The notes under the pieces are model-generated. The model was not told the DNA's origin and made no database searches. It saw nothing but the letters and a program-made list of their open reading frames with translations. A stretch of DNA of 64,000 nucleotides from Carcharhinus amblyrhynchos (Eukaryota): contig OZ336876.1 in assembly GCA_965287045.1 (NCBI GenBank), forward strand, positions 43,152,001 through 43,216,000, in the 5' to 3' direction. Positions 17,896 to 61,921 of this stretch are shown piece by piece. Both the position numbers and the translations under genes were made by a program. Each line of letters opens with the position of its first letter. The first letter of the stretch is position 1.

Positions 17896-18668
17896 AACTT
17901 AATGGTGCAGATGGTTCACGGCCCTGACTGGCCATCTTTTATGTTGCTTGAAAGCTGTGAAGATGTTTTCCTTGGTAAACATGGGCTGGCACATTTATAG
18001 ATCCTGTAGGTGCAGGATATGAGGGGGTAAAATATCAGAAGGAGGGATGGGGGTGCATGCTCATCTTCCTGCTGCCATGGCAACTGGCCAATGAGGGAGG
18101 CAGCAGTAAATGGCTTTCTGCCCAGAGTCACTTAAGTGGCAATTAAGAGCCTCTTCTCACTTCTGTTATTTTACCAGCAAAGGGTGGGCTCTCAGCCACA
18201 ATGGGAAACTGGCTGGCAAACTCTGGCAACCTCCCTGAAAGCTTGGTTGTTGTTGAATGGGCAGTGCAGGGGAGTGTCATCTGATCGAGCATTTTTTAGT
18301 TCACAGAGGGTCACCCCTGCAGCAATGGTTGCTCCTATGGCAACTGGCAACACTTCACCCTAATCAACCACCAGGTCCCTCTGCCAGGCATGCCTAATTG
18401 GTAGTGGTGACCTTTGGCTCCACATGATTTGTTCTGAGGAAAGTTTGATATCCACTGGTGAGTCTTTTTCATTGGGTTCAGCAGTGGCTTCCAATTGGCC
18501 AGCATCTTAGAGGCAATCTTTTGGTTACTTAATGGTTGGGATCCCTGTTGGTAGCTCATTGGTTACCTGATGGTGATAAAACCTGGCCCAGGCTCCCTAA
18601 GCAGGCAAGGCAGGGTTCCCCTGGCTTTCTGGCCTGTTGCCAGGGTCATTCCTGTCCAACAAAGTCTC

Positions 18669-18860
18669 AGTAAGAAATCTCACAACACCAGGTTAAAATC
18701 CAACAGGTTTATTTGATAGTAAACTGACAAGCTTTTGGGGTTTGCCCCTTTGTCAGGTGAGTGGAGAGTTTTACTATCAAATAAACCTGTTGGACTTTAA
18801 CCTGGTGTTGTGGAACTTCTTACTGTGTTTACCCCAGTCCAACATCAGCATCTCCACAAT
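18669..18860. mobile_element. Palindromic short element family A (Penelope-type inverted pseudo-LTR) with TSD
   Basis: Arms agtaagaaatctcacaacaccaggttaaaatccaacaggtttatttgatagtaaa and ttttactatcaaataaacctgttggactttaacctggtgttgtggaacttcttact, plus tail ccccagtccaacatcagcatctccaca; flanked by aaagtctc at 18661 and 18861. Confidence 0.75.
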
Positions 18861-19726
18861 AAAGTCTCAACCAAGCTGTCTGTCAGATATCCTTCTGTGA
18901 ATGGAAGACTGGTTGAGTTGGTGATGTTTCTTGTGTCACCAGGAAGAATCCTATAACATGAAATTTTAATGCTGTTCTTATCTTCACAAGCATTGACTGC
19001 ATTGCATTGGACTAGTACCTGTGATAGACTGATTACGTTATAGCAGGTCATCATTATAACATGGTCACTGTCTCTGCTATGGTGCAAATACGGAAGCTGG
19101 AGCTCTTCTGATCTCCCAGAACGATAGCTGAACACTGGGATAGCTCCAAAATGTAAGCAGGTCTTCAAGGGCCTGAAGATAGTGTGCCCTCGTCATCTTA
19201 ACCTCTTCTTCCTTATGACACAGTATAATTAGAATATCCAATTGAGTTCCTATCCTTCCACCTTGCTGCTTCATACTTTGAGTACCGTATCAACAATGGC
19301 TGAAATTGTAAGCTTGAAAAATATGAACTGCAGAACAAACTAAAGGAAAAAAAAGAATAAATGAACTGAACGATATGTACAATGAGGCAAAATGCTATTA
19401 TTCTGTCCACAAAACCCATCGGTGAAAATTCGACAACACGTAGCTTAAAGGCAATGCCCAAAGCAGGCAAGATCCATTTTGCAGACAAGTGCCCATTTTA
19501 TATTGGCAAAGACCATATTGTAGATGTTGTCGCAGATGGACACTGTTCTCTCAATTTTTATTGAAAGGCACAGGCAATTTGTTTAAGTGTGCGTCCCTTT
19601 TAATTTTGTTTTTGCATGGTTGTTGCTGTACATGTCCACTTATTCAAACAGGCTGACAACTTGCGTGCAGCTGATGAGTAGGACTTTCAGGTTGCAGTGT
19701 GAACAGGCAGCTTAGAAGGCACATTG

Positions 19727-19938
19727 AGAAGTCTCACACCACCAGGTTAAAGTCCAACAGCTTTATTTGGCAGCACGAGCTGTCAGAGCGCAGCTCCTTC
19801 ATCGGGTGAAGGAGCACCTGATGAAGGGGCAGCACTCTGAAGGCTCATGCTACTAAATAAAACTGTTAGACTTTAACTTGGTGTTGTGAGACTTCTTACT
19901 GATGCTGCCCTAGTCCAGTGCTGGCATCTCCACATCAT
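19727..19938. mobile_element. Palindromic short element family A, with hammerhead-like cores in both arms
   Basis: An ~85-bp arm and its reverse complement meet at ~19810; ctgatga at 19818-19824; same tail (ccctagtccagtgctggcatctccacatcat); degenerate flanking duplication agcttagaaggcacat / agcttagagagagcacat. Confidence 0.75.
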
Positions 19939-20390
19939 AGCTTAGAGAGAGCACATAACCACATTTTAATCGCTTGAACAAGTAGTGTGTTGCAGGCTTT
20001 CAAAGCTGCTTTTGGACTGCAAAACTGCCAGTCTGAAAGTCAGACTCGGTACAAATTCAGCGCTATGAAAGCTTATTCTAAACCTGCCTAGCTTGGCACT
20101 AGTTACGGAATCTCAGAGAACTTATCTTTATAACTCGATAGTCAGATGTCTATCCAAATGTAACTTCACTAACAGCAAAAGGACGCAAGACCATCTCAGT
20201 CATACTTAGCTTTCATCTGAATTGAAATCCAAGGATTTAGATTTGAATTATATTAGTTTTTAAGATATGTCACTTCCTCAGCTCCATCCTGGCCAATTTC
20301 CCAGGCTGGGCAGACAGCCAGTTTATCTTGTCAATGGCTACACAAGTCTTTTCCAGTCAGCCTCCAGGTCAGTGCAAGCAACAAGAGACA

Positions 20391-55759: not shown

Positions 55760-58440
55760 TTAATTTTGCAGGATGTGGGTGTTGCTGGTTAGGCCAGCAT
55801 TTATTGCCAATCCCCAGTTGCCCTCGAGAAAGTGGTGGTGAGCTGCCTTTTTGAACCGCTGCAGTTCCTATGGTGTAGGTGCACCCACAATGATGTTAGA
55901 CAGGGTGTTCCATGACTTTGAACTAGGGAGAGTGAGGGGATGGTGGTATATTTCCACGTTAGGATGGTGGGTGATTCATTCTAGATGTTAGTGGTCATGA
56001 GTTTGGAACTTTGATGGTATGTGGTACACATTGCTGCCAGTGTTGGGGGGATTGAATATTTGTGGAACAGGTAGCAATCAGGCAGGCTGCTCTGTCCTGG
56101 ACGACGTCAAGCTTCTTGAGTGTTGTTGGAGCTGCACTCATCCAGGAAAGTGGAGTGTATTCTATCAGACTCCTTGAGATTTGTAGATGGCAGATAGGCT
56201 TTGAAGTGTTAGGAGGCAAGTTATTCACTGCAGGGTTCCTAGCATTTGACTTGCTCTTATAGCCGTAATATTTATATGACTAGTCATTTCAGTTCTTTGG
56301 TCAAAGGTAACCCCCAGGATGCTGAAAGTGAAGAATTCCATGATAGTAATGCCACTGAATGACCATAGCAATGGTTATATTCTCTTTTGTTGGAGATGGT
56401 CATTGCCTGGACTGATGTGGCATGAATGTTACTTGCCATTTGTGAGCCCAAGCTGGATATGACCCAGGTCTTGCTGCATTTGGAAATGAACTGCTTCAGT
56501 GTCAGAGTCGTTGTGAACACTGCTGAACATTGTGCAGTTATCTATGAAAATCCTCACTTCTGGTCTTATGATAGGAAGAAGGCTACTGATGAAGCAGCTG
56601 AAGACAGTTGGGCCCTCGGGAACTCCTACATATACTGGACTTTCCAAAATGCATTACCTCATATTTGTCTGGATTAAACTCCATCTGCCATTTTTCCGTC
56701 CTAGTCTCCAGCCAGTCTATATCTTGCTTATCCTCTGACAATCCTCTTCACTATTTGCAACTCCACAAATTTTTGTGTTGTCTGCGAAATTACTAATCAG
56801 ACCAGCAGCATTCTCCTCCAAGTCATTTATATACACTGTGAACAACGAAGGTCCCAGAACTCATCTCTGCGGAACACCATTAGGTACAGCCTTCCATTCA
56901 GAAAAGCATCCCTCCACTACTATCCTCTGTCTTCTGTGGCCAAGCCAGTTCTGTATCCATCTTGCCAGCTCTCCTGTGATTGTGTGATTTCACCTTTTGT
57001 ACCAGTCTACCATGACAAGGGCTTTACTGAAGTCCAAGAATACAACATCCACTGCCTTTCCCTGATATCATCTTCGTCACCTCCTCGATAAACTCGATCA
57101 AGTTAGTGAGGCACGACCTCCCTTTCACGAAACCATGCTGTCTATCACTAATAAGTCTGTTTGTTTCCAAGTGTGAATAAATCCTGTCTCTAAGAATCTT
57201 TTCAAAAAATTTCTGTGCCACTGAACTAAGGTTCACTAGCCTATAATTTCCTGGATTATTCCTGCTGCCCTTCTTAAACAGTGAAACAACATTGGCTATT
57301 CTCCAGTCCTCTGGAATTTCACCTGTAGCCAATGAGGATGCAAAGATTTCTGTCAAGGCCCCAGCAATTTCCACCCTTGCCTCCCTCAGTATTCTGGGGT
57401 AGATCCCATCAGGCCATAGCAGTAATGCTGCATAACACAATAGAGAGTATCCCCAATGTGAAGAAGGGATTTTGTCTCTGCAAGGGCAATGCGGTGCTCA
57501 CTGATCCATAGATGAATTTCTCCATGACATTATCAGAGTGCAAGGCAGCTTGATGAGGATCTGCCTGTTGTTGGTTTCAACAGTCAACCTCTTATTTGCT
57601 CCCTTAACACCTGCCACAATCTAGCAGTGATGTACTTAAGGACCTGAACAGCTCAGCTTGTGGCAGTATTATTGAATCCTTTTGATGATGGACTTTGAAG
57701 TCCCCATCCCAGAATACATTCTGTGCTCTTTCCACCCTTAGTGGTTCTTCCAAGTAGTGTTCAACATGGAGGAGTACTGATTCATTAGCTGAGCAACGTG
57801 ATAATCAGCAGTAGGTCTCCTTGCCCATGAATAATCTGGTGCAATGAGACTCCATGGGGTCCAGGGTTGATGCTAAGGACTCCAGGGAAATTCCCTTCCT
57901 ACTGTATACCAATGTGCCATCACCTCTGTGAGGCAACATACCTAGGAATGGTGATGATGTCTGGGATATTATTTATAAGGTATGATTCTGTGAGTACAAC
58001 TCTGTCAGGCTGTTCCTTGACTACACTGTGGGACAGCTCTGGCAATTTTGGCACAAACCCCTGATGTTAGTAAGGAGCACTTTGCAGGGCTGAGTTTGCT
58101 GTTGCCGTTTCTGGTGCCTACGTGGTCCAACTGGTTTCATTCCTTTGTGTTTTCTTTATAATAGTTGAAAACAAATGAGTGGCATTTCAGAAGGAATTTA
58201 AGAGTCAACCACATTGCTGTGGTTCTGGAGTCACATGCAAGCCAGACCGGGTAAGAACGGCAGTAGCGAATCAGATGGGTTATTATGACAATTGATAATG
58301 GTTTCATGGTCGTCAGTGGATTCTTAATTCCAGATGTGTATTGAGTTTAAATTCCACCATCTGTCCTGATGGGATTTGAACTTAGATACCTAGGGAATAC
58401 ACTGGGTCTTTGGATTACTAGTCAACTGAAGTACCGCTGT
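55760..58440 (-). mobile_element. Decayed APE-RT LINE (CR1/L2-group family distinct from HER1-like CR1)
   Basis: GVPEGPTVFSCFISSLLPIIRPEVRIFIDNCTMF (RT core, decayed FADD) and EYTPLSWMSAAPTTLKKLDVVQDRAACLI; endonuclease-like remnants at 57420-58100. Confidence 0.75.
56630..57415 (-). mobile_element. CR1 RT fragment nested in the preceding LINE
   Basis: PDGIYPRILREA...IPEDWRIANVVSLFKKG...NYRLVNLSS...QHGFVKGRSCLTNLIEF, then GVPQ...LGP.LF.VYINDL...FAD.TK. Confidence 0.92.
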
Positions 58441-61815: not shown

Positions 61816-61871
61816 CCAAGGCCTTGCTTCGGTGATATCGTCTGTGAGTCCTAGGAGGGTAGCCATGATGA

Positions 61872-61921
61872 CCAAATAAACCTGTTGGACTTTACCCTGG
61901 TGTTGTGAGACTTCTTACTGT
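61872..61921 (+). mobile_element. Single arm of family A repeat
   Basis: ccaaataaacctgttggactttaccctggtgttgtgagacttcttactgt. Confidence 0.8.

Follow-up and report, generated by a model that had tools for sequence, protein, structure and literature searches.

A probable 5'-truncated Penelope-like insertion with two decayed hammerhead cores in a shark genome, and the arm ends of its family

The insertion at 19717-19938 and its hammerhead cores

The window, i.e. the whole stretch of 64,000 nucleotides of Carcharhinus amblyrhynchos DNA that was analysed, contains a 222-bp insertion at 19717-19938, lying between two copies of an 8-bp word. The identical 8-mers at 19709-19716 and 19939-19946 are the left and right target-site duplications (TSD). 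The start of the insertion, given as 19727 in an earlier note made from the sequence alone, is moved to 19717. That note described an ~85-bp arm followed by its reverse complement, which agrees with the inverted repeat measured here (19722-19808 versus 19815-19901, 87 nt, 83% complementary, 72/87). Numbering the first base after the hammerhead cleavage site as +1, repeat detection delimited an inverted arm on the minus strand (19717-19809), of the tail-less 3'-end class, with its 5' end 33 nt upstream of the cleavage site (-33). Similarity to other copies delimited a direct, tailed arm on the plus strand (19815-19938), with its 5' end 32 nt upstream (-32); both ends are thus 2-3 nt short of the family mode at -35. 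Between the arms, a 5-nt junction spacer, AGGAG (19810-19814), was read from the sequence, a word that is present in stem II too. The insertion is asymmetric, the right arm extending ~37 nt past the left one, to 19938. This one-sided tail (19902-19938, plus strand), recognised from two 3'-end classes ~36 nt apart, runs into an ORF start codon in tandem copies. Both arms are shorter than 125 nt and carry neither an ORF nor a TATA word. The direct arm presents up to 90% identity to other family copies, and the two arms now differ by 17%, their decay being of the CpG type.

The decayed minimal type I hammerhead cores are located at 19815-19849 on the plus strand, with predicted cleavage after 19846, and at 19774-19808 on the minus strand, and both sequences had been quoted correctly, letter for letter, in the earlier note. 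Alignment with intact copies showed the substitutions A15.1>G, G1.1>A and C11.1>U in the plus core, together with a C.A mismatch in stem II, G1.1>A breaking the closing pair of stem I. In the minus core, the same comparison (alignment A1) gave U4>C, A14>C and C11.1>U. The residue numbers of these defects follow hammerhead numbering. The mutated GAAA box that had been noticed in each copy is only a part of the damage: the boxes are indeed broken, and further defects lie outside the GAAA box in both cores. Neither window copy therefore presents an intact catalytic core in a foldable context, box mutations being found in both.

Folding of the inverted arms as RNA gave -129.2 kcal/mol with a z-score of -12.8, and none of 200 shuffled sequences was equally stable. 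As the cores are on opposite strands, a read-through RNA pairs each core with the complement of the other. When the whole insertion was folded, the stem II pair probability was 0.0 on either strand, and the minus core adopted no hammerhead fold even when folded alone. Both cores are mutated and are predicted to be folded shut in an 87-bp hairpin, in line with the earlier suspicion that both copies are probably inactive. Their back-to-back arrangement, which had been likened to that of hammerheads cleaving as dimers, does not have dimer geometry, the cores being on opposite strands. The window hammerheads likely have no role at this locus, the ribozyme belonging to the parent element. A search with hammerhead models had been proposed as a check of the motif; with Rfam, it gave no hammerhead match in the window at E<=10 (7 unrelated matches), nor in three loci whose cores are intact or nearly so (6 unrelated matches, E<=5). 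Since loci with intact cores are also unmatched, this blank cannot judge the motif.

The identity, layout, TSD and decay of the insertion are established by the present analysis; taken alone, this locus is a transposon scar of an ordinary kind. It is very probably a dead, 5'-truncated, Neptune-type Penelope-like insertion in which two head-to-head, hammerhead-bearing pseudo-LTR ends lie within an 8-bp TSD.

Three other elements were observed in the window. A second head-to-head insertion of the same family lies ~1 kb upstream (18662-18858), with a strongly decayed minus-strand core in its left arm, a tailed right arm that begins just downstream of the cleavage site, and a 9-nt word present at both ends. 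A third one (61860-61920) consists of a ~50-nt tail-less arm in front of which lie ~11 nt of the tail end in inverted orientation; it represents a two-ended insertion of minimal size and has no hammerhead. A stop-free frame of 157 aa on the minus strand (57024-57497) looks like a LINE reverse transcriptase fragment, presumably of CR1 type.

The family ribozyme and the parent element

A 26-mer located downstream of the core gave 30,736 exact matches in the 2.9-Gb host genome, a 42-mer of the family gave 5,960 and an intact 28-nt core gave 1,453, the reversed control being 0 in each case. A DNA similarity search of the genome returned 2,241 candidates, of which 40 were scored. The repeat and its two 3'-end classes are also present in contigs of 4 out of 4 runs from other organisms.

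Loci were chosen by a downstream anchor only and 134 cores were captured, a capture that favours intact ones; the boxes are intact in 60 of these cores and the stems as well in 23. Among the 134, position N7 varies freely (T 74, C 52), and the cleavage position H17 is A in 66, T in 41, C in 25 and G in 2, G being almost absent. Family cores exhibit the CUGANGA, GAAA and NUH boxes, an extra base at position 9, the G10.1-C11.1 pair, a palindromic AGCU and covariation in stem II, and the earlier assignment to minimal type I hammerheads with intact boxes at the family level is thus upheld. In alignment A1, which comprises 12 hand-picked rows, both bases are changed in three of the five stem II pairs, these changes coming mainly from one subfamily, and two further subfamily variants swap G-C and A-U pairs in this stem. 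Judged by its sequence features, the family ribozyme is real. In the parent element it likely works in dimeric form or together with the protein that the element encodes. The minimal hammerheads of Penelope-like elements (PLEs) are described as having low activity and needing dimers (PMC4209133). In a partial model, the co-fold of an intact core prefers a stem II duplex over an AGCU dimer (-29.3 versus -18.9 kcal/mol).

Upstream of the core, longer copies contain a ~230-nt 3' UTR, preceded by the final part of a GIY-YIG frame and by an RT frame. One of them, L042, contains a 572-aa stop-free frame with an RVT_1 match (Pfam, E 3.7e-9), while L032 shows a weak GIY-YIG match (E 0.003) that is below the Pfam cut-off. 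Their translations present DKG, a CX4CxxC linker (C-x4-C-x2-C) and CCHH motifs. The best named protein relatives are shark sequences with 81-90% identity, and an 881-aa relative (P0005) holds both RT and GIY-YIG domains. The single ORF of EN+ PLEs, with RT (DKG) and, at its C terminus, a GIY-YIG domain, was found in the longer copies and is absent from the window copy. The tail leads, in both L183 and L058, into a frame that can be aligned with residues 1-42 of P0005 (L183: 50% identity, E 7e-11), and the arm is therefore a pseudo-LTR. A hammerhead pseudo-LTR preceding the ORF start, as in EN+ PLEs, is thus present in partial tandems. The family has a CX2-5CxxC linker between RT and EN as well as CCHH in EN, features that define the Neptune or Nematis clade (bioRxiv 10.1101/2021.04.23.441226). 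From its sequence motifs, the parent element is assigned to the RT and GIY-YIG Penelope-like elements, of Neptune (or Nematis) type; the link to Penelope that had been suggested is borne out, the same sequence forming the 3' end of these elements. A full-length intact element was not found in three 9-kb stretches, and the longest stop-free frame observed in this genome is that of 572 aa.

Internally deleted head-to-tail derivatives were observed at L058:1492-1930 and L183:1130-1660, with the order pseudo-LTR, ~40 codons of the ORF start, 3' UTR and second pseudo-LTR. They carry two same-strand cores ~300 nt apart, which is a dimer-capable, retrozyme-like layout. A subfamily with a fully compensated stem II (L073:4757-7340) presents a consensus-like splice donor exactly at the cleavage site. 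In the window (19847-19918, plus strand) and in family copies, a branch-point-like word, a pyrimidine tract and an AG lie between the cleavage site and the ORF start, which suggests a candidate ~70-nt 5'-UTR intron resembling that of D. virilis Penelope. The donor of this candidate is weak in most subfamilies, and no GT..AG joint for it was found among the 15 of 49 contig joints listed.

Arm ends and proposed insertion mechanism

In the first 68 Mb of contig C1, 254 arms were called in 164 loci. Dropping 20 arms duplicated by flank left 234 unique arms, which were picked by exact anchors and are biased to young, main subfamilies. Several insertions recurring with the same flanks in the first 6 Mb of this contig (for instance L043/L044, L078/L106/L114, L256-L259) indicate segmental duplications and were excluded from the counts. 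The 3' ends of the arms form two classes ~36 nt apart. The 234 arms include 60 head-to-head pairs, 53 of which combine exactly one tailed and one tail-less arm (tail on the left in 29, on the right in 24), and the lengths of the two arms are independent of each other, ranging from about +20 to beyond -1000. A loose search, run without a chance control, gave a candidate TSD of at least 6 nt in 39 of the 60 pairs. In L073, the same layout surrounds a 2.4-kb ORF-bearing arm, with a 183-nt inverted repeat that is 97.8% identical. The inverted pseudo-LTR layout that had been recognised in the window was found again, with head-to-head arms, one tail and candidate TSD. Complex insertions made of an inverted 5'-truncated copy, a one-sided 30-40-bp tail and a TSD are described for PLEs (bioRxiv 10.1101/2021.04.23.441226, i.e. 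PMC8557442; PMC3846280), and the window copy has this constitution, with a 30-40-nt tail.

The 5' ends of 57 of the 234 arms fall at -29 to -38, with a mode at -35 (14 arms) followed by -36 (9 arms). The end hazard in this interval is 0.039/nt, compared to 0.0074/nt at 0 to -28 (p ~1e-15). When only the loci of the second sample are counted, 30 of 121 ends lie in the peak (p 2e-8), and none of the 234 arms ends at -49 to -58. The peak is present in paired (35/120), unpaired (22/114), tailed (28/120) and tail-less (29/106) arms. Two other origins were rejected. An alignment artefact does not account for it, 700 simulated truncations of 61 long arms giving 58 true versus 60 called ends in the bin; nor does a missing subfamily, the 22 unpaired peak arms having unlike or partner-derived flanks. 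At the cleavage site itself there is no excess, with 7 of the 234 arms ending no more than 2 nt away (p 0.66), and the use of cleaved RNA as template, which predicts ends at this site, is unsupported.

The position of the pile-up is likely the transcription start of the element, as judged from the surrounding sequence. In 7 of 9 reference copies, the A at -35 is preceded by a TATA-like word that begins 29-33 nt upstream of it, and this A sits in an initiator-like context (Inr consensus). In contigs from other organisms, a strand change at -36 to -34 was seen in 5 of the 15 joints listed (49 in total), a weak indication because the reference itself starts at ~-38. A TATA box together with an Inr-like word is described in Adineta pseudo-LTRs (PMC3846280), transcription is known to begin within the pseudo-LTR in Penelope and Chlamys-3 (PMC8557442), and the internal promoter of D. 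virilis Penelope is TATA-less (PMC2377424).

The base preceding -35 was then considered. It was counted by eye in the first 100 of 2,684 matches, 26 of which continue into the element; the other 74 have G in 43, A in 19 and T in 12. G at other arm ends represents 58 of 150 non-C bases, which differs from the base before -35 (Fisher p 0.005), a difference that is not significant once 15 possibly partner- or tandem-templated G are removed (28/59, p 0.16). Exact matches with G before -35 number 1,984, T precedes this G in 18 of 26 unique loci, and the position control for the extra G is swamped by a subfamily variant. Untemplated G can arise from copying of the cap, as in LINE-1 work. A cap-derived extra G at the arm ends is suggestive only.

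An alternative, which we consider unlikely, is that the pile-up reflects stalling of RT at the folded ribozyme, or microhomology at the junctions, and not a transcript start. The peak does coincide with the 5' edge of stem I, and the word at the peak shows partial complementarity to another word located downstream in the element; its antisense strand, moreover, reads as a 5' splice site of the general consensus. Nevertheless, if the fold blocked RT, ends would be expected at its 3' edge (~+3), where no excess is seen, and a splice donor would cut at -29 whereas the mode is at -35/-36. Neither stalling nor microhomology sits well with a peak shared by paired, unpaired, tailed and tail-less arms alike. 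The antisense 5' splice-site word occurs on the 5' strand of the family stem I (window 19815-19820) in both common variants, and may be relevant for intronic insertions.

Returning to a transcription start at the pile-up, we propose the following course for the insertion. The element's endonuclease would cut both target strands, reverse transcription primed by each 3' end would begin at one or the other of two internal sites (the tail-less or the tailed one), and both cDNAs would be joined at their 3' ends. The cDNAs would be short owing to run-off, the template being an uncleaved RNA whose 5' end lies within the pseudo-LTR, just upstream of stem I. We hold two-ended priming at two internal sites followed by joining of the cDNA ends to be probable, and run-off from uncleaved RNA at a start just before stem I to be somewhat favoured by the data. 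That about a quarter of the arms are run-off cDNAs begun at the internal RT sites of the 5' pseudo-LTR and ending at a TATA/Inr start at the first stem I base, often with a cap-derived G, instead of at the ribozyme cleavage site, has in our judgement an even chance of being right. Uncleaved template RNA could come from full-length elements as well as from solo copies of the pseudo-LTR, the latter perhaps as short templates acting in trans. In vitro, a purified PLE protein cleaves the two strands and extends both, starting from two internal sites; it works on unprocessed RNA, and 5'-shortened templates give shorter products (PMC11167929).

The second arm could instead have been copied from the first, one cDNA folding back and priming itself, or an antisense template being used. 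Self-priming on an antisense template was proposed for the head-to-head junctions of Adineta PLEs (PMC3846280), and several junctions of the present set have zero or negative gaps, consistent with microhomology. Fold-back is nonetheless doubtful, considering that the outer ends correspond to two different RT start sites in the 53 pairs with a single tail, that either the left or the right arm can be tailed, that the arm lengths are independent, and that extension of both strands is seen in vitro (PMC11167929).

The earlier note had proposed a short, non-autonomous ribozyme-bearing family; such a family (SINE-, MITE- or retrozyme-like) would move as a ~220-bp palindrome. Short insertions are very common and their arm ends cluster, the internally deleted derivatives L058 and L183 exist with two same-strand cores, and non-autonomous PLE derivatives have been published (bioRxiv 2026.07.22.740005; PMC8557442). 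This is, however, very unlikely to explain the window insertion. The 60 de-duplicated pairs contain no shared junction or fixed unit, ends and spacers differing from pair to pair, which together with the independent arm lengths means that there is no fixed mobile palindrome; each palindrome is a truncation product of a single insertion. The end peak also spans several subfamilies, the palindrome has no upstream TATA word and is predicted to be folded shut, and the same sequence ends RT and GIY-YIG elements. A functional ribozyme or RNA hairpin retained by the host is barely credible, as the very stable hairpin that would form upon transcription has to be set against catalytic-box mutations in both cores and arms that have diverged through CpG-type decay.

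Meaning of the family and comparison with known systems

The kind of element, the ribozyme and the head-to-head layout are already known. A literature search found no paper on the shark family or on the end pile-up, and Dfam or Repbase may already catalogue the family. The shark family represents a large natural record of PLE insertion, for which work with purified protein comes from one system only (PMC11167929). If the pile-up is a capped start, it provides a genomic test of the template RNA used in vivo and of whether hammerhead cleavage plays a part in transposition; the present data hold no trace of cleaved templates. Should the run-off reading be true, tens of thousands of copies would testify to the use of capped, uncleaved RNA as template in vivo, and most short palindromes would be strong-stop-like by-products of two-ended priming.

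The hammerheads of metazoan PLEs (Cervera and De la Pena 2014, PMC4209133) share with the shark family the CUGANGA and GAAA boxes, the extra base between 9 and 10.1, the G10.1-C11.1 pair, the palindromic 15.2-16.2 and a short stem I. Dual motifs on opposite strands, as at the window locus, are already reported there. Stem II has 5 bp in the shark family versus 7-8 in Schistosoma, and the two window copies are mutated, unlike the motifs of that study. Sharks are not named in the available part of its text, and its supplementary alignment may hold one.

Retrozymes are PLE-derived, protein-free elements with a type I hammerhead and are reported in one chondrichthyan (bioRxiv 10.64898/2026.07.22.740005). 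Their units are arranged head-to-tail in tandem and each contains a core, whereas the window cores are head-to-head on opposite strands, which sets the window insertion apart from this class; L058 and L183 suit it better.

The insertions of EN+ PLEs (PMC8557442, PMC3846280) resemble the window locus in the inverted truncated copy at the 5' junction, the single tail and the 8-bp TSD, and the shark family in the pseudo-LTR running into the ORF start. The window differs from them in that both its arms stop at the 5' edge of the hammerhead and are short, without ORF or TATA. In having a TATA and an Inr-like word in the pseudo-LTR, the shark family is like Adineta Pen2a.

The closest mechanistic parallels are provided by PAc, the Poseidon of Anolis carolinensis (Frangieh et al. 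2024, PMC11167929). The available part of that paper mentions no accumulation of genomic ends at a predicted start site for PAc. PAc belongs to the Poseidon clade and its ORF starts in stem II, whereas the shark ORF starts at the tail end, and the CX4CxxC linker of the shark protein is listed as a further difference. As in the shark family, PAc has two RT start sites about one tail length apart, downstream of the hammerhead. It cuts both strands and uses unprocessed RNA as its main template, as proposed here for the shark family, and no reads were found to end at its cleavage site, where the shark arms likewise show no excess.
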